From assembly GCF_044324785.1 (NCBI RefSeq), contig NZ_CP172127.1: 64,000 bases of DNA; one strand, given 5' to 3'. A program made the position numbers and the translations under genes. Positions 5,315 to 47,307 of this stretch are shown here, in pieces. The notes below the pieces were generated by a model. The model was given only the letters and a program-made list of their open reading frames with translations, was not told the DNA's origin and ran no database searches. The stretch comes from Escherichia coli (lineage in GTDB: Bacteria > Pseudomonadota > Gammaproteobacteria > Enterobacterales > Enterobacteriaceae). Each line of letters opens with the position of its first letter. The stretch's first letter is position 1.

Positions 5315-6415
5315 TTATTGTTTCAGCATGTCGCTGATACTGTAGATGGCAGATATCATGTTAAGAATAAAAAAGAAGACAAAACCTCCTGATATACCGG
5401 TAATAATTAATCCCATTCGTTTTACCCGTTTTTTTGCCTCTTCCAGCCACTGATCGGCATAGAGTGCCATGGTTGCCACTCTGTCCTCCCTTTCGGAGTT
5501 CAGGAGCAGTTTATTGATGCATATTCTGGACGGAAAATCGTAACCGGAATTTCGCATTGCTGTGGCCAGATTCTGACCGGATAATACATGTTTTCGTATT
5601 GCCTGAATTCTCTCCTTTAACCATTTATTCTTTTCTGCACCTTTTTCCATTCGGAGCAGCGCCTGCGAAAGAGGAATATTAATCTGCAGCATGGATGAAA
5701 TACTGAACAGATAATTCACCCCGTGTAAGGTCTGATACAGTGACCAGGGGGGAGCCTTGTCCAGCATCCTCCGGCCGGGGCCGGTATACCGGCTGAATGA
5801 AAAACGGATCAGAAGCGTCAGGGCGAAAATGGTCCCACAGAGCCAGAATCCGTACCCGATGAAAAATTCCGACATGCCGGCAAGCAATTTCATCTGGAAT
5901 GACCATTTATCTTCTGAAGCAAACGCACTGACGATGGGGATGATACGGGTATGGGCGTTGTACATATTCACCACACAGAGCGAAAGCAGCAGAAGGGGGT
6001 AGAGGCAGACGGCAATGAGGCTGGATGTCATTTCCCGCCGGGCTTTAACGGTTCTGGCCACCTGGAAAAGGGCGTCGGCAATATTTCCGCGCTCTTCCCC
6101 GTTTCTGATTAACGTGGCTTCCTCCGGTGGCACCCAGGTTAACAGGGCACCGGATAACATGCCGCTGGCTTTGATGGAATCGATGCATTCTTTTGCCAGA
6201 AAATACATGCCGGATGTGCCTTTCTTTTCACCAAAATCGGTTTCGATCTCGCAGAGAAATTCGAGTGCACGCAGGGACGGCGTTCCGTCACGTATCATGC
6301 CGCCCAGGGCTTCGTAGAACTCCACCCGGTTCAGGGCAAAGGTTTTTCTGGCTATCCAGACAGTCAGTGCTGTCAGCTCAATGTCGGTGTTGTTGAGTTT
6401 TTCCAGAAATCTCAT
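5315..6415 (-). CDS. pilR: type IV pilus inner-membrane platform protein, GspF/PilC-like (366 aa)
   Basis: Start set to ATG at 6415 (MRFLEKLNNTD...), immediately after the pilQ stop; size agrees with R64 PilR. Confidence 0.7.
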   Translation of the reverse strand: MRFLEKLNNTDIELTALTVWIARKTFALNRVEFYEALGGMIRDGTPSLRALEFLCEIETDFGEKKGTSGMYFLAKECIDSIKASGMLSGALLTWVPPEEATLIRNGEERGNIADALFQVARTVKARREMTSSLIAVCLYPLLLLSLCVVNMYNAHTRIIPIVSAFASEDKWSFQMKLLAGMSEFFIGYGFWLCGTIFALTLLIRFSFSRYTGPGRRMLDKAPPWSLYQTLHGVNYLFSISSMLQINIPLSQALLRMEKGAEKNKWLKERIQAIRKHVLSGQNLATAMRNSGYDFPSRICINKLLLNSEREDRVATMALYADQWLEEAKKRVKRMGLIITGISGGFVFFFILNMISAIYSISDMLKQ

Positions 6416-6416
6416 G

Positions 6417-7937
6417 TCAGTGCAGCAGCGTATAGCTGTCCTCGTCGATGGGAGAGATGTAATGGGCCGCCAGCGGATCAACCTGCCCGCTGTTGATTTT
6501 TCCCAGCAGATGCTGATTTCGTGTCATGCCGCCCAGCTCCCGGTGCCAGTATGTTCTGGCCTCAATACGCCCCTTTTCCCGGTACAACTGGAAAAAACGC
6601 GCATCCGGGGAGATGACTTCTGCGATCACCGTTCGTCCTGTCACGCCACGCCAGCAGTGCGGGCAGCCTTCATGATTTCGCAGATATACCTGGTCCGGGT
6701 TGCAGACGCTTTCCACCAGGCGCCGTTCATCATCCGTGCGCTCGGTAGCCACCTCATGCCAGGGGCGACGGCAGTGCGGACATATCAGCTGAACCAGACG
6801 CTGGCTCAGCAGGCCAATGAACAGTTGCGGGTCGGCAATCATCCTGGCCTGTACCCCCTCCATCTCAAGACGTTCGAGGATGTTAATCGGGTCGTTCGCA
6901 TGGATGGTGGTCAGCATCAGATGCCCGGTCATGGCGGCTTTTATTGCCGTAATGGCGGAATCGTGGTCACGGATTTCGCCGTTCAGGATCCCGTCAGGGT
7001 CAAGACGCAGTGCTGATTTAATGGAGTCCACCCAGCCCTGTGCGGAATCCATGACGGCGGTCTGAATGGCACCGGGTATACGGCCCTCTGGCGGGGATTC
7101 AATGGTGAACAGCCTGCGACGGGGCAGAAGAATACCGCCGGTATTGTTGAAGCCGTACTGTTCAAGGTACGCCGCAGAGGCGGTTCTCAGCGTGGTGGAT
7201 TTTCCTGAACCTGTTGGTCCTGAGAGCGTGATAATACCTTCAGGGCGCTGCAGAATACGGCGCAGGGTGCGCTCCTGCTCAGGGTGGTAGCCCAGCATGC
7301 TGAAGGTCGGGATTTGCTGACTGTCATCCTTGATCAGACGGAGCACAGCATAGAGGCCGCCCACGCAGGGATAGTGGGAGTAGCGTGCACCAAACAGACC
7401 GGCCAGTTTCAGGTACTGCTCTGAAAGACGCGCATCCTGAGGCACCCCGGGATCAAACTGTGTGCCCTTGATGACGTCGGTCATGCCGGAATAGGTGGCC
7501 CCCAGTAATTCGAGGCCTTCTTCTTTCCGGAGGATATCGAGCACTTCCAGTTCGCCGTGAACCCGGGCTTCCACATAGGTGAAGTCCGTGTTGTCTCGTC
7601 CCGGGGTCATATGAAGGTCTGAGGCATCCAGTTGAGCGGCTTTTCTGATGTAATCAAGAACTTTTCTTTGTACTGTGTTGATCCCTCCGTCGGATAAAAC
7701 GCCCGGTGCACGTTCCGTATTATTGCTGTTCAGGGTTGCGATAACGTCAAGAGTGGTAAAATCGAATTTGCTGATTTTTCCCGGATAGCGGGAGCGTAAG
7801 AGCGTCAGGTAACGTTGTACAGAGGTGATGTGCTTCTTCGCCTCGACGACTTTCACCCTGATTTTTCCGTCAGCGTCATGCTGAATTGCGACGAAATCAC
7901 GAATATCTTCAGGAGGCAGTTCGATAGTCTCTGGCAT
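6417..7937 (-). CDS. pilQ: type IV pilus assembly ATPase, GspE family (506 aa)
   Basis: Walker A (LSGPTGSGKSTTL) and tetracysteine motif (CPHC...CPHC). Confidence 0.85.
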   Translation of the reverse strand: MPETIELPPEDIRDFVAIQHDADGKIRVKVVEAKKHITSVQRYLTLLRSRYPGKISKFDFTTLDVIATLNSNNTERAPGVLSDGGINTVQRKVLDYIRKAAQLDASDLHMTPGRDNTDFTYVEARVHGELEVLDILRKEEGLELLGATYSGMTDVIKGTQFDPGVPQDARLSEQYLKLAGLFGARYSHYPCVGGLYAVLRLIKDDSQQIPTFSMLGYHPEQERTLRRILQRPEGIITLSGPTGSGKSTTLRTASAAYLEQYGFNNTGGILLPRRRLFTIESPPEGRIPGAIQTAVMDSAQGWVDSIKSALRLDPDGILNGEIRDHDSAITAIKAAMTGHLMLTTIHANDPINILERLEMEGVQARMIADPQLFIGLLSQRLVQLICPHCRRPWHEVATERTDDERRLVESVCNPDQVYLRNHEGCPHCWRGVTGRTVIAEVISPDARFFQLYREKGRIEARTYWHRELGGMTRNQHLLGKINSGQVDPLAAHYISPIDEDSYTLLH

Positions 7938-40365: not shown

Positions 40366-41520
40366 TTACTTCAGACCGGCAGCATCGCGCAGCAGCTGCG
40401 CTTTGTCGGTTTTTTCCCACGGGAAATGTTCGCGACCAAAGTGACCGTATGCTGCGGTTTCTTTGTAGATCGGGTGCAGCAGATCCAGCATCTGAATCAG
40501 ACCGTATGGACGCAGGTCAAAGAACTCACGTACCAGCAGAGTCAGTTGTTCAGAAGGCACTTTCTCGGTACCGAAAGTTTCCACCATGATAGAGGTCGGT
40601 TCAGCCACGCCGATTGCGTAGGAAACCTGAATTTCACAACGATCGGCCAGGCCAGCAGCAACGATGTTTTTCGCGACATAACGTGCTGCGTACGCTGCGG
40701 AACGGTCCACTTTTGATGGATCTTTACCAGAGAATGCACCACCACCGTGACGTGCCATGCCGCCGTAGGTATCAACGATAATTTTACGACCAGTCAGACC
40801 GCAGTCACCCATCGGGCCACCGATAACAAAACGACCGGTCGGGTTGATGAAGAATTTGGTGGCAGAAGTCAGCCATTCAGCCGGCAGAATCGGCTTGATG
40901 ATCTCTTCCATTACCGCTTCTTGCAGCGATTTCTGGTCGATTTCTTCAGAGTGCTGAGTGGAAAGCACGACAGCATCGATACCAACGATTTTGCCGTCGT
41001 CATACTGGAAAGTCACCTGGCTTTTCGCGTCCGGGCGCAGCCACGGCAGAGTGCCGTTTTTACGCACTTCAGCCTGACGCTGTACCAGACGGTGTGCATA
41101 GGTGATAGGCGCTGGCATCAGCACGTCGGTTTCATTGGTTGCGTAGCCAAACATCAGACCCTGGTCACCCGCGCCCTGTTCCAGCGGATCGGCACGGTCA
41201 ACGCCCTGGTTGATGTCAGGAGACTGTTTGCCGATAGCGCTCAGAACCGCACAGGAGTTAGCGTCAAAGCCCATGTCGGAATGTACATAGCCAATTTCGC
41301 GAACGGTGTTACGGGTGATCTCTTCGATGTCTACCCAGGCGCTGGTGGTGATTTCGCCGCCAACTAAAACCATGCCGGTTTTTACGTAGGTTTCGCAAGC
41401 AACGCGTGCTTTCGGATCCTGTTCGAGGATCGCGTCTAAAACGGCATCAGAGATTTGGTCAGCAATTTTGTCAGGATGCCCTTCAGAGACGGACTCGGAC
41501 GTAAAAAGGTGTTTTGCCAT
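40366..41520 (-). CDS. metK: S-adenosylmethionine synthetase (384 aa)
   Basis: Start at internal ATG ([32 protein letters not shown]...). Confidence 0.95.
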
Positions 41521-41560
41521 ATTTAATATCACCTAAAGAGAATTTGGTTAGCTCAAACTG

Positions 41561-41827
41561 TTGTGTGGATTTTCTGTGGTAGCGGATCCTACCACGACTC
41601 TGCAGGTTAAAAACACTGGCAGTCTGAGTGTTAATCGGTATGGATGGATTAACATCTGGATGGCTATTTTAGGTCAGTTCTTCACCCAATTTCCACTTTT
41701 TTTTGAATCGTGTCTCATTCTGTTAAAAACGTGGCTGGAAATTTTTCCTGACAATGCTGGCATTCTGCGTATTTATCTTTTGCAATTTTCTGCCATTGTG
41801 GGGTATAAAACGCGGCGCGCGGCTTAA
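41561..41827 (+). CDS. small hypothetical ORF in the metK-speA intergenic region
   Basis: Open frame only; sits where K-12 annotates small yqgC/yqgD-type ORFs. I do not recognise the sequence. Confidence 0.2.
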
Positions 41828-42174
41828 ATAAAAAGCACACGACGTTTCTTTCGTGTTGCCACTTCCAGCCGGGTTGAAATCAGAGTTTTGGCTTGTGGGT
41901 TCGTCTTAACAGGCGGCCGTGGAGGTGATACGAAATAATGAACCGTTGTCTGCTGCTTAACCTGTCTCACCGTTCTGGTGAAGATTCGTTCCCCGCACTC
42001 TGCATCTCTGCTTTGCATACCTGCCGATGTTATACCCATCTCGGCGCTTCTCAGGATTCAAGAGCTGGTTACAGTTACTGAGGACTGAACAAGGGCGCTC
42101 TTGTAAAAACAAGAGTTTTCTCGTGGTTTCGCCGAACTGTCACACTTACGTTCGGTTATGTGCTTAATAATGTT

Positions 42175-42306
42175 ATGAAAAAGAAACCGGTTGCGCAGTT
42201 GGAGCGTCAGCATTCACTGCTGGAAAATCCATGTGCTTATGGGTTGTTATCGCAGTTCCAGGCTGCGATAGTCGTTAACTGTTTTACACTTAATAAAATA
42301 ATTTGA
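42175..42306 (+). CDS. yqgB: small protein YqgB (43 aa)
   Basis: [43 protein letters not shown] directly upstream of speA; below the track's length cut-off, found by reading the sequence. Confidence 0.7.
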
Positions 42307-42314
42307 GGTTCGCT

Positions 42315-44291
42315 ATGTCTGACGACATGTCTATGGGTTTGCCTTCGTCAGCGGGCGAACACGGTGTACTACGCTCCATGCAGGAGGTTGCAATGAGCTC
42401 CCAGGAAGCCAGCAAGATGCTGCGTACTTACAATATTGCCTGGTGGGGCAATAACTACTATGACGTTAACGAGCTGGGCCACATTAGCGTGTGCCCGGAC
42501 CCGGACGTCCCGGAAGCTCGCGTCGATCTCGCGCAGTTAGTGAAAACTCGTGAAGCACAGGGCCAGCGTCTGCCTGCACTGTTCTGTTTCCCACAGATCC
42601 TGCAGCACCGTTTGCGTTCCATTAACGCCGCGTTCAAACGAGCGCGGGAATCCTACGGCTATAACGGCGATTACTTCCTCGTTTATCCGATCAAAGTTAA
42701 CCAGCACCGCCGCGTGATTGAGTCCCTGATTCATTCGGGCGAACCGCTGGGCCTGGAGGCCGGTTCCAAAGCGGAGTTGATGGCGGTGCTGGCACATGCT
42801 GGCATGACCCGTAGCGTCATCGTCTGCAACGGTTATAAGGACCGCGAATATATCCGCCTGGCATTAATTGGCGAGAAGATGGGCCACAAGGTCTATCTGG
42901 TCATTGAGAAGATGTCAGAAATTGCCATTGTGCTGGATGAAGCAGAACGTCTGAATGTCGTTCCTCGTCTGGGCGTGCGTGCACGTCTGGCTTCGCAGGG
43001 CTCGGGTAAATGGCAGTCCTCTGGCGGGGAAAAATCGAAGTTCGGCCTGGCGGCGACTCAGGTACTGCAACTGGTTGAAACGCTGCGTGAAGCCGGGCGT
43101 CTCGACAGCCTGCAACTGCTGCACTTCCACCTCGGTTCGCAGATGGCGAATATTCGCGATATCGCGACAGGCGTTCGTGAATCCGCGCGTTTCTATGTTG
43201 AGCTGCACAAGCTGGGCGTCAATATTCAGTGCTTCGACGTCGGCGGCGGTCTGGGCGTGGACTATGAAGGCACCCGTTCGCAGTCCGACTGTTCGGTGAA
43301 CTACGGCCTCAATGAATACGCCAACAACATCATCTGGGCGATTGGTGATGCGTGTGAAGAAAATGGTCTGCCGCATCCGACGGTAATCACCGAATCGGGT
43401 CGTGCGGTGACTGCGCATCACACCGTGCTGGTGTCGAATATCATCGGCGTGGAACGTAACGAATACACGGTGCCGACCGCGCCTGCAGAAGACGCACCGC
43501 GCGCCCTGCAAAGCATGTGGGAAACCTGGCAGGAGATGCACGAACCGGGAACTCGCCGTTCTCTGCGTGAATGGTTACACGACAGCCAGATGGATCTGCA
43601 CGATATTCATATCGGCTACTCTTCCGGCACCTTTAGCCTGCAAGAACGCGCATGGGCTGAGCAGCTTTATTTGAGCATGTGCCATGAAGTGCAAAAGCAG
43701 CTGGATCCGCAAAACCGTGCTCATCGTCCGATTATCGACGAGCTGCAGGAACGTATGGCGGACAAAATGTACGTCAACTTCTCGCTGTTCCAGTCGATGC
43801 CGGATGCGTGGGGGATCGACCAGTTGTTCCCGGTTCTGCCGCTGGAAGGGCTGGATCAAGTGCCGGAACGCCGCGCTGTGCTGCTGGATATTACCTGTGA
43901 CTCTGACGGTGCTATTGATCACTATATTGATGGTGATGGTATTGCCACGACAATGCCAATGCCGGAGTACGATCCAGAGAATCCGCCGATGCTCGGTTTC
44001 TTCATGGTCGGCGCATATCAGGAGATCCTCGGCAACATGCACAACCTGTTCGGTGATACCGAAGCGGTTGACGTGTTCGTCTTCCCTGACGGCAGCGTAG
44101 AAGTAGAACTGTCTGACGAAGGCGATACCGTGGCGGATATGCTGCAATATGTACAGCTCGATCCGAAAACGTTGTTAACCCAGTTCCGTGATCAAGTGAA
44201 GAAAACCGATCTTGATGCTGAACTGCAACAACAGTTCCTTGAAGAGTTCGAGGCAGGTTTGTACGGTTATACCTATCTTGAAGATGAATAA
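42315..44291 (+). CDS. speA: biosynthetic arginine decarboxylase (658 aa)
   Basis: Start at internal ATG ([49 protein letters not shown]...). Confidence 0.95.
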
Positions 44292-44308
44292 TTAAGATTA
44301 TTCCGCTG

Positions 44309-44350
44309 GCGGGTCGATTTATTTACGTAAATCGGCCCGCTTTCTTTTTA
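44309..44350 (+). terminator. rho-independent terminator after speA
   Basis: Hairpin gcgggtcgattt...aaatcggcccgc followed by tttcttttt. Confidence 0.55.
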
Positions 44351-44436
44351 TATATTCTTAAAAATAATTTAGCTGCTTTTCTTATTAAATAATCCCCCTA
44401 CAATCGCTGCATTAATTAAATACAGAGGGAACGGTT

Positions 44437-45168
44437 ATGAAAAAATGGAAAGTACGTAGCGCGTTGATAGCATTAGTCGTGCTGCTGACCGGTTGTTCCA
44501 GTAATGCGCAGTATAATAGCAGTACATCGGGCAATGTCGGCACCGCCTGGGGTGGGGATGTGCACTCATCGGTTCAGGGCGTATCTGCTGAGCGAGCCTG
44601 GCGCGATCCGGCAGAGATGATCGTTATTAGTTATTCGACTACTGTTCCTTCGGGCTACGACCGCGTTTATAGCATTCGTATTAACGAACTGGAATATGCT
44701 ATTCGCGATGGTAATTTTAATTCTCTACCTATTACGCGGGTTTATGATTCATCCAATAATGAACCACGCTATATTGTCCATGCCAGAATCGGAATGAATT
44801 ATCAATTATATATCCGTAATTACAGTCGTAACACCAACTACGAGATCGTTGCTACGGTTGATGGCCTGGATGTGCTGAACGGCAAGCAAGGTTCGCTGAA
44901 TAACAATGGCTATATTGTGAATGCCGGAGATTCGTTAGCGATTAAAGGATTCCGCAAAGATAAACATACCGAAGCGGCTTTTCAGTTCGCCAACGTTGCT
45001 GATTCCTACGCAGCCAATTCGGCGCAAGGCGATGTGCGTAATACCGGGGTAATCGGCTTTGCCGCCTTTGAATTACAAGGCCCGGCGCAAAACGCGATGC
45101 CACCGTGCTCTGGACAAGCCTTTCCGGCAGATAACAATGGCTATGCACCGCCACCGTGCCGGAAATAG
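44437..45168 (+). CDS. predicted lipoprotein of unknown function (243 aa) inserted between speA and speB
   Basis: Lipobox (LLTGCSS); AT-rich leader; own terminator downstream; function unknown. Confidence 0.65.
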   Translation: MKKWKVRSALIALVVLLTGCSSNAQYNSSTSGNVGTAWGGDVHSSVQGVSAERAWRDPAEMIVISYSTTVPSGYDRVYSIRINELEYAIRDGNFNSLPITRVYDSSNNEPRYIVHARIGMNYQLYIRNYSRNTNYEIVATVDGLDVLNGKQGSLNNNGYIVNAGDSLAIKGFRKDKHTEAAFQFANVADSYAANSAQGDVRNTGVIGFAAFELQGPAQNAMPPCSGQAFPADNNGYAPPPCRK

Positions 45169-45235
45169 CAACCTCGCTTGATGCCTCGTCCATTTAAGGC
45201 GATAATTAGCGCAAACTTGTGTTTCGCAAATCCAA

Positions 45236-45276
45236 CCCTTCCTCGTCGGGCCTAACGACGCGGAAGGGTTTTTTTA
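45236..45276 (+). terminator. rho-independent terminator after the lipoprotein gene
   Basis: Hairpin cccttcc...ggaaggg followed by a T7 run. Confidence 0.6.
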
Positions 45277-45303
45277 TATCGACTTTGTAATAGGAGTCCA
45301 TCC

Positions 45304-46224
45304 ATGAGCACCTTAGGTCATCAATACGATAACTCACTGGTTTCCAACGCCTTTGGTTTTTTACGCCTGCCGATGAACTTCCAGCCATATGACAGCGATG
45401 CTGACTGGGTGATTACTGGCGTGCCGTTCGATATGGCCACTTCTGGTCGTGCGGGGGGACGCCACGGTCCGGCAGCGATCCGTCAGGTTTCGACGAATCT
45501 GGCCTGGGAACACAATCGCTTCCCGTGGAATTTCGACATGCGTGAGCGCCTGAATGTCGTGGACTGCGGCGATCTGGTATATGCCTTCGGCGATGCCCGT
45601 GAGATGAGCGAGAAGCTGCAGGCGCACGCCGAGAAGCTGCTGGCTGCTGGTAAGCGTATGCTCTCCTTCGGTGGTGACCACTTTGTTACGCTGCCGCTGC
45701 TGCGTGCTCATGCGAAGCATTTCGGCAAAATGGCGCTGGTACACTTTGACGCCCACACCGACACCTATGCGAACGGTTGTGAATTTGACCACGGGACCAT
45801 GTTCTATACCGCGCCGAAAGAAGGTCTGATCGACCCGAATCATTCCGTGCAGATTGGTATTCGTACTGAGTTCGATAAAGACAACGGCTTTACCGTGCTG
45901 GACGCCTGCCAGGTGAACGATCGCAGCGTGGATGACGTTATCGCTCAGGTGAAACAGATTGTAGGTGATATGCCGGTTTACCTGACTTTTGATATCGACT
46001 GTCTGGATCCTGCTTTCGCGCCGGGAACTGGTACGCCGGTGATTGGCGGCCTGACCTCTGATCGCGCCATTAAACTGGTACGCGGCCTGAAAGATCTCAA
46101 CATTGTTGGGATGGACGTAGTGGAAGTGGCTCCGGCATACGATCAGTCGGAAATCACCGCTCTGGCTGCGGCGACGCTGGCGCTGGAGATGCTGTATATT
46201 CAGGCAGCGAAAAAGGGCGAGTAA
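45304..46224 (+). CDS. speB: agmatinase (306 aa)
   Basis: Ureohydrolase translation ([29 protein letters not shown]...). Confidence 0.95.
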
Positions 46225-46260
46225 GCGCCGGATAAGATGCGTTATGCGTCAAATCCGGCG
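46225..46260. repeat. REP-like palindromic element
   Basis: gcgccggataag...tccggcg. Confidence 0.5.
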
Positions 46261-46271
46261 TAATAAAATGC

Positions 46272-47030
46272 TTACTTAACTCCATCCGCGCTCATACGAT
46301 CGCGAATATGCTGGGCGCGTTCGGCGGATGCTGGATGGTCGTCAAACATTGAGCTTTGACGGCCTTCTTCCAGCTTCGCCAGTTTTTCAAAGCTGGTGGC
46401 AAGACCTGCCGGGCTGATGCCGCGTTGGCGCAGAAGATCGTAAGAATAATCATCGGCTTCTGCTTCCTGGCGCTGGGAGAATTGCGAATTGACTAATTTC
46501 TCGCCCAGATCACCGAGTTGTGATTGCGATAAACTGCCGACAATCCCGCCCGCAGAGGCCGCAGCTACTCGTACGGCATTTGTACCAAGTGCCACCTGCA
46601 TCCCTTTCTTCACATGGCCTAACGCTACGTGCCCCATCTCGTGACCGATCACCGCTTCGACTTCGTTATCTGTCATCATATCCATCAGCCCGCTATAGAC
46701 GCGGATACAGCCGTTAGCCATTGCAAAGGCGTTCACATCCTTCGCCATATACACTTTGTAATTCACCGGCTGACCGTTGATATTGTTGCCTAGCGCATTG
46801 GCAATAGTTGTCAGACGTTTAGCGTATTCGCTATTGGCTGGCGCAATCGTCGCCTTGCTGTCCATCTCCTGACATGCCTGATCGCTCAGGGTTTTCACCT
46901 GCGCATCACTCAAACTGTAAGCCTGAAAAGCTTCCGCTCCTGATGAGAGCAGTCCGTTGGAGTCCATATTCTGGCAACCGGTCAGTACCGTTGCCACGCT
47001 CATTGCTACCAATAAGGCGCGAATTTTCAT
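46272..47030 (-). CDS. loiP: M48 metalloprotease LoiP (252 aa)
   Basis: Start at internal ATG (MKIRALLVAMSVATVLTGCQN, lipobox); HEXXH motif (IGHEMGHVAL). Confidence 0.9.
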   Translation of the reverse strand: MKIRALLVAMSVATVLTGCQNMDSNGLLSSGAEAFQAYSLSDAQVKTLSDQACQEMDSKATIAPANSEYAKRLTTIANALGNNINGQPVNYKVYMAKDVNAFAMANGCIRVYSGLMDMMTDNEVEAVIGHEMGHVALGHVKKGMQVALGTNAVRVAAASAGGIVGSLSQSQLGDLGEKLVNSQFSQRQEAEADDYSYDLLRQRGISPAGLATSFEKLAKLEEGRQSSMFDDHPASAERAQHIRDRMSADGVK

Positions 47031-47307
47031 GTTTTCTCTTCCGCACAAGGTCAGGATTATTCTAAAAATGCGCCGTTTGCAGGTGAATCGACGCTTAGTC
47101 TCAGTATAAGGAAAAGCGCAGCGGACGGGCGAGTAGATTGCGCAACATGCGAGCATGATCCAGAGATTTCTGAAGCAGCAAAAGGATGTTCCATGTACAT
47201 GACGCGCGGCTTGCGGTAAATTGTTGGCAAATTTTCCGGCGTAGCCCAAAACGCGCTGTCGTCAAGTCGTTAAGGGCGTGCCCTTCATCATCCGATCTGG
47301 AGTCAAA

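Follow-up and report, generated by a model that had tools for sequence, protein, structure and literature searches.

A predicted outer-membrane lipoprotein gene between speA and speB that is present in most Escherichia coli and absent from K-12

In the K-12 derivative J53, speA and speB are adjacent, as a first-pass annotation of the present sequence had stated: the gap between them is 137 bp long and contains no gene. In the stretch of Escherichia coli DNA analyzed here (64,000 nucleotides of contig NZ_CP172127.1, RefSeq assembly GCF_044324785.1; hereafter the window), the same two genes are separated by an open reading frame (ORF) for a predicted lipoprotein, referred to below as X, which that annotation described as inserted between them. 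This locus thus raises two questions, namely whether X was gained by the lineage of this strain or lost from that of K-12, and what a lipoprotein gene might do in the company of two genes of polyamine metabolism. Here we address both by combining an analysis of the transcription signals of the locus, a survey of its alleles in complete E. coli genomes, comparisons with other bacteria, and family, structure and literature searches centered on the X protein.

Organization of the speA-speB interval

The interval 44292..45303 comprises the entire gap from the speA stop codon (44291) to the speB start codon (45304) and contains a single long ORF, X, with an ATG start and 243 codons (Table 1). A 658-aa speA product is annotated in RefSeq at the matching place of J53 and O157 SS52, and loiP (46272..47249, minus strand) directly follows speB in the window. 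A scan of 41500..46500 against Rfam identified no RNA families.

Table 1. Features of the speA-speB interval and its immediate neighbors in the window
Feature	Position	Strand	Basis
speA, biosynthetic arginine decarboxylase, upstream neighbor	42315..44291	+	ORF
speA intrinsic terminator	44308..44351	+	Hairpin 44308..44341 (15-bp stem, 4-nt loop) then T-rich tail; terminator scan
X leader, AT-rich	44352..44436	+	-10-like TACAAT and Shine-Dalgarno
X, predicted outer-membrane lipoprotein, 243 aa	44437..45168	+	ORF, family alignment, AlphaFold2, dN/dS
Promoter-like TTGATG-17-GATAAT	45178..45206	+	Scan; between X stop codon and second terminator
Second intrinsic terminator	45234..45275	+	Hairpin 45234..45270 then T7
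speB, agmatinase, downstream neighbor	45304..46224	+	ORF; RefSeq annotation of matching gene
Segment absent from K-12-type allele, about 877 bp	44292..45168	.	Pairwise and multiple alignments, population counts

Folding of the hairpin that follows speA gave a dG of -23.4 kcal/mol (z -6.0), and this hairpin is kept, with changes in both arms, in Salmonella, Klebsiella, Citrobacter, Kluyvera, Phytobacter and Kosakonia. The hairpin of the second terminator, located about 30 bp ahead of the speB start (dG -24.4, z -4.6), shows one compensatory pair change in Klebsiella spallanzanii. By these predictions, X is a separate unit bracketed by two strong intrinsic terminators. The first-pass annotation had credited X with a terminator of its own; two terminators do flank the gene, but the one assigned to X is the hairpin found after speA in K-12, from which the first terminator is missing.

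The AT-rich leader that had also been ascribed to X is borne out by the GC content of the speA-X spacer (44292..44436), 33.8% versus 51.7% for the whole window. Within this leader we located a -10-like TACAAT at 44399..44404 and a Shine-Dalgarno sequence, AGAGGGA, at 44424..44430, and alignment showed that the TACnnT block and a purine-rich ribosome-binding site are kept across genera. A consensus scan of the leader revealed no full sigma-70 match, and the X promoter is predicted to lie at the conserved -10-like block.

Downstream of X, a strong hairpin with seven T residues comes no more than about 30 nt after the promoter-like motif, and the speB ribosome-binding site comes next (45178..45303). 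Both hexamer positions are kept in Escherichia, Citrobacter, Kluyvera, Klebsiella, Phytobacter and Kosakonia as well as in the K-12 spacer, with the surrounding spacer varying; in Phytobacter and Kosakonia the second-terminator hairpin is replaced by a different one that has no T-run. Judged from its layout, this combination of promoter-like site and terminator ahead of speB could constitute an attenuator-type leader controlling agmatinase, or could give rise to a short terminated transcript.

Distribution and ancestry of X

To survey the alleles of this locus, the 1,012-bp interval was compared by megablast with 5,426 complete E. coli genomes, and a reciprocal search was performed with the K-12 junction. 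The full segment was detected in 3,550 genomes, the remaining ones matching only its last 77 bases, i.e. the second terminator and the speB leader. The K-12 junction query recovered the K-12 arrangement in 1,867 of the 5,426 genomes (about 34%), and 5,417 of the 5,425 matching genomes have one or the other of these two alleles. X is absent from J53 and from the BL21 derivative Nico21(DE3) and present in O157:H7, ST131 and IAI1. The first-pass annotation would have been refuted by a gene shared by K-12 and essentially all E. coli, and these counts show otherwise. It is an ordinary presence/absence difference involving a gene that is already annotated, in RefSeq and likewise in other sources, as "hypothetical protein", "lipoprotein" or "membrane protein".

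A second variable segment occurs nearby: in IAI1 a D-glucosaminate PTS/dagR cluster lies between speB and loiP (locus L093, 5329..12645), and in strain 23CRST038 dagR follows speB (L090, 4748 onward). This segment is absent from both the window and K-12.

Where X is present it is sometimes damaged. An IS1 element interrupts it in single E. coli genomes (L091, 1646..3154; L090, 2248..3434), and a common truncated variant of 174 aa (protein P0023), represented by 448 member sequences, ends in GKVRTSP followed by the stop, which may be read-through into an IS5 end. The natural loss of X in a third of E. coli together with the IS1-disrupted copies indicates that the gene is dispensable. Loss in 34% of complete genomes, sporadic IS1 disruption and the truncated variant would also be expected if X were decaying or had no function and simply lingered in some lineages. 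This explanation is contradicted by the full-length, intact orthologues found across genera, by the membership of X in a widespread family with invariant columns, and by dN/dS ratios of 0.06-0.13 in comparisons with Salmonella, Klebsiella, Citrobacter and Kluyvera, for which synonymous divergence is saturated, and of 0.08-0.10 relative to other Escherichia species; we consider it scarcely credible. The same ratios and the full-length orthologues in many genera argue that X is not a chance ORF, and they point clearly to purifying selection on X where it is retained.

The order speA-X-speB was found in Escherichia whittamii, E. albertii, the cryptic Escherichia clades, three species of Citrobacter, Klebsiella, Kluyvera, Intestinirhabdus, Phytobacter, Kosakonia and Entomohabitans. 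In total, the synteny speA-X-speB(-loiP-tkt) was observed at 14 enterobacterial species loci plus Klebsiella, with X orthologues of 52-94% identity in the same place and orientation. In Salmonella X lies directly after speA and is followed by an island, so that it is separated from speB and not from speA. Given this shared speA-adjacent place, X must predate the split of Escherichia, Salmonella, Citrobacter and Klebsiella, and "inserted" has the direction of the change wrong.

The island of Salmonella enterica begins right after the X stop codon (L004, 5733..5960) and consists of sugar-acid genes, encoding a GntR regulator, a mannitol dehydrogenase, a zinc alcohol dehydrogenase and an Ldh_2 protein. 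In the Salmonella locus compared here, which does not extend to speB, the conserved promoter-like motif and terminator were not found behind X; both presumably stayed with speB. A 63%-identical X homologue with no enterobacterial neighbors was also encountered on a contig labelled Chryseobacterium sp. 18061 (L019, 6001..6729), which could reflect contamination, mis-binning or gene transfer.

The direction of the change is also recorded in K-12 itself. The 935 bp at 44292..45226 of the window correspond to only 60 bp in K-12, and multiple alignment showed that this J53 spacer (L001, 2441..2500) is colinear with the 58-60 bp that follow X (45169..45226 in the window) in every genus, the motif TTGAnn-17-GATAAT being shared by the K-12 spacer and the post-X spacers across genera. 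Global alignment of the K-12 and post-X spacers scored 5, against -9.3 +/- 4.0 for shuffled sequences, a value reached by 5 of 2,000 shuffles; taken by itself, a local alignment of the 60-bp spacer to the complete 935-bp segment did not reach significance. Colinearity of the K-12 spacer with the sequence after the X stop codon identifies K-12 as the derived, deleted state. The event would have been a deletion of roughly 0.9 kb (~877 bp) in which speA's own terminator was removed along with the leader and coding sequence of X, so that speA in K-12 now ends at the former X terminator.

This loss was not a simple recent deletion, since the K-12 spacer is only ~60% identical to the X-bearing spacer, as distant as that of Citrobacter or Klebsiella, whereas the flanks are 97-100% identical (119 of 119 positions at 45227..45345). 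The post-X spacer of all X-bearing Escherichia, including E. albertii, is nearly identical to that of the window. The K-12-type allele may accordingly be old, fast-evolving or imported by recombination, to judge from these alignments.

The opposite scenario, in which a recent horizontal insertion split adjacent speA and speB genes in the lineage of this strain, would account for the absence of X from K-12, for the polymorphism of the allele in E. coli and for the composition of X (GC 48.4%, GC3 47%, versus a GC3 of about 63% for speA and speB). It does not account for the occurrence of X at the same position and in the same orientation in at least ten enterobacterial genera, for a divergence in step with that of the hosts (identities of 75% for Salmonella and 52-74% for other genera), or for the retention in K-12 of the last 60 bp of the spacer found in X-bearing genomes; moreover, no repeats, integrase or IS were found at the borders of X. 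A search of plasmids yielded 12 matches, all on non-mobilizable records that were mostly chromosome-sized or chromid, some being fragment records, and with no match on mobilizable plasmids an origin of X from a mobile element was rejected. A recent insertion is therefore very improbable.

The X protein and its possible role

The 243-aa lipoprotein-type ORF reads as the first-pass annotation had quoted it, with LLTGCSS at residues 16-22 and an Asn/Ser/Tyr-rich composition (23 N, 21 S and 14 Y among the 224 residues of the mature protein), and it ends in the Cys- and Pro-rich tail PPCSGQAFPADNNGYAPPPCRK. Its signal peptide spans residues 1-19, MKKWKVRSALIALVVLLTG, ahead of Cys20, and consists of MKKWKVR, a hydrophobic stretch and the lipobox LLTG/C20; the lipoprotein signature of an [LVI][ASTVI][GAS]C lipobox, a positive n-region and a hydrophobic h-region is thus complete. 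Under the Lol sorting rule, Asp at position +2 directs a lipoprotein to the inner membrane and other residues direct it to the outer membrane. The +2 residue of X is Ser (other enterobacterial orthologues have Ser or Ala), and by this rule X is predicted to be an outer-membrane lipoprotein.

A word-indexed search retrieved 276 matches to X, and an exhaustive search yielded 2,917 cluster representatives (50% identity) at E<=1e-3 and 882 at E<=1e-10, distributed over Gamma-, Beta- and Alphaproteobacteria and Myxococcota. Conservation was assessed in an alignment of 99 members, 96 of which have the lipobox Cys. The family shares an N-terminal motif, LGTxWGE, a C-terminal motif, FP...(Y/F)APPP, and a most conserved core at residues about 109-213 of X, in which Y122, G143, G149, G171, R173, F182 and G204 are invariant and N128, E136, D142, D145, Y159, Y191 and N202 near-invariant. 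The tail cysteines Cys224 and Cys241 occur in enterobacterial members only, where a disulfide between them probably closes the tail. In the AlphaFold2 model of X (mean pLDDT 89.4, pTM 0.78), residues 33-213 form an all-beta domain and the tail has a pLDDT of 62-73, suggesting that mature X comprises a short flexible tether, a compact all-beta domain of ~180 residues and a proline-rich tail of 30 residues.

The searches and structure prediction that had been proposed for the ORF thus delivered a large family and an all-beta model, and no named family. X, which the first-pass annotation did not recognize, has no family match in NCBIfam or Pfam: it matches no Pfam model even at E<=10, and Pfam searches with 25 longer relatives revealed no fused domains, the sole match being a lipid-attachment site at E 0.1. 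The NCBIfam scores were far below cut-off for ActS (NF040883, 14.9 vs 375 bits), LptM (NF047847, 13.7 vs 27.7) and the RpoE-regulated lipoprotein (NF007990, 11.9 vs 207), and these matches were confined to residues 1-49, i.e. the signal peptide and tether. PADLOC assigned X to 0 families. PHROGs returned weak matches only, the best of which (E 0.007) pointed to a family of unknown function and most of which were confined to the signal peptide, and a profile search of PDB sequences gave nothing but signal-peptide noise at E about 1. At the level of fold, AFDB50 contained only unannotated members of the X family, and Foldseek against PDB found nothing below E 8.5e-3, with TM scores below 0.3; the PDB matches represent a generic beta-sandwich resemblance and provide no evidence of family membership. 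No paper or supplement reporting on X was found in the literature: the gene is unlisted in EHEC Ribo-seq supplements and unmentioned in an APEC polyamine paper and a W3110 putrescine paper, and a mention of STM3085 proved to be an entry in an off-target list.

The genomic context of the family beyond Enterobacteriaceae bears on whether X has anything to do with polyamines. Across 80 loci, gene-neighborhood analysis identified no conserved partner of X, and outside Enterobacteriaceae the gene was found among unrelated housekeeping genes. In none of Providencia, Gilliamella, Acinetobacter, Neisseria and Variovorax does the homologue adjoin speA or speB: Providencia has the order metJ-X-rpmE, the Gilliamella homologue adjoins a conserved gene that its sequence suggests is recO, and in Variovorax (L008, 6001..7205; also L043, L064, L072 and other loci) the homologue lies within the his operon, where it and a small secreted Rap1a-like protein (Pfam PF18602, E 3e-5) are encoded between hisD and hisC. 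Acinetobacter carries two tandem X paralogues (L052, L058, L078, L084 and L088; about 6001..7450), followed in four of these five loci (not L052) by a gene for a small secreted two-cysteine protein without a Pfam match. A recurring immunity-type partner of X was considered and dropped, the Acinetobacter small protein having no detectable likeness to the Rap1a-like protein of Variovorax.

A tie of X to polyamine metabolism, for instance in envelope sensing, binding or export of agmatine or putrescine, would be in keeping with a speA-X link that is kept throughout Enterobacteriaceae, even in Salmonella with its island between X and speB. However, vertical descent by itself would give conserved synteny among close relatives, homologues outside Enterobacteriaceae occupy unrelated positions where neither speA nor speB is close by, X is insulated from its two neighbors by a strong terminator on either side, and a third of E. 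coli have lost X with speA and speB intact. We regard such a tie as quite improbable: X does not appear to be a component of the polyamine pathway, and a polyamine role is unlikely.

Relatives of the X core were also found at the N-terminus of hypothetical proteins of rhizobial phages that have no signal peptide, namely Rhizobium phage RHph_I1_18 (L094, 3989..4714), the 469-kb Sinorhizobium phage Phosso (L095, 4001..4852) and the 490-kb Agrobacterium phage Atu_ph07. In these proteins the core is followed by a G-x-G-W/Q-G segment and then by an NPFPG tail, which resemble the N- and C-terminal motifs of X. From this order, read in the translations, the phage versions appear to be circularly permuted relative to X. 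Neither Pfam nor PHROGs gave a match to these proteins, and a search with a phage relative as query retrieved only eight proteins, all unannotated.

Taking these lines of evidence together, we think it likely that X is a vertically inherited, stand-alone outer-membrane lipoprotein gene that was lost in K-12 and whose product is proposed to be a binding module. X would then be a dispensable, outer-membrane-anchored module of the envelope with an envelope component as ligand or partner, binding being mediated by R53, Y122, N128, E136, D142, D145, Y159, R173, Y191, N202 and possibly the tail motif. "Binding module" is here the default reading of a modelled beta-sandwich that has no catalytic signature, and is a reading of low specificity. 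Alternatively, X could be an enzyme acting on an envelope substrate, e.g. a hydrolase, with a catalytic or metal center built from E136, D142, D145, R173 and conserved tyrosines. Each of these polar columns is retained by 94-99 of the 99 diverse members, the strongest conservation falls in a ~105-residue segment (109-213) that also occurs in other architectures, and the near-invariant acidic residues E136, D142 and D145 could equally mark an enzyme or metal site. Weighed against the binding module, we judge an enzymatic role unlikely.

A broader and tentative proposal, which we consider rather doubtful, is that X and its relatives constitute an undescribed beta-sandwich superfamily, comprising 2,917 clusters at 50% identity and having a defined molecular function; this superfamily has no Pfam model and no solved structure. 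Its role could be the recognition of an envelope polymer or short peptide through a patch formed by Y122, N128, E136, D142, D145 and R173 together with the FP...YAPPP tail.

Significance and comparison with known systems

K-12 is the reference for the E. coli envelope and has no X, so the gene was missed by gene-by-gene characterization based on this strain. A practical consequence concerns the neighboring genes: the terminator treated as that of speA in K-12 was originally that of X, and most E. coli have another hairpin at the end of speA. Regulatory maps of the two genes drawn up in K-12 need to take account of this before they are applied to pathogens or commensals. X itself is one more conserved protein of unknown function, with nothing pointing to an unusual mechanism, and its family is a reasonable but unremarkable target for characterization.

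In overall design X resembles Lol-sorted outer-membrane lipoproteins, with which it shares a lipobox of the type L-(A/T)-G-C, a non-Asp residue at +2, a Ser/Asn-rich tether and a single globular domain. Unlike these in one respect, it has no sequence relationship to the named lipoprotein families, since ActS, LptM, the RpoE-regulated lipoprotein and Lpp/OprI match its signal peptide only and far below cut-offs. Among solved structures, MATH/TRAF-like domains (the TRAF-like domain of USP7/HAUSP, the MATH domain of SPOP, TRAF1 and TRAF6) align with the X model at TM<=0.27 and 2-14% identity, which is the range of generic beta-sandwiches. MATH domains, which are eight-stranded antiparallel beta-sandwiches with a peptide-binding groove, belong to eukaryotic cytosolic proteins; X has no Pfam MATH match, and its domain is about twice as large. 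Small beta-sandwiches of the Ig-like and ToxA/Avr2 types were matched over 70-90 of about 180 residues, which supports no functional or evolutionary link.

At the level of the genome, the closest comparison is with the O-islands, the strain-specific segments catalogued when O157:H7 was compared with K-12, most of which are gains of the pathogen. Like these, the X segment is present in O157:H7, as well as in ST131 and IAI1, and absent from K-12 at an otherwise colinear locus, in this case as a sub-kilobase segment. Unlike most of them, it represents an ancestral gene that was lost in the K-12 lineage.
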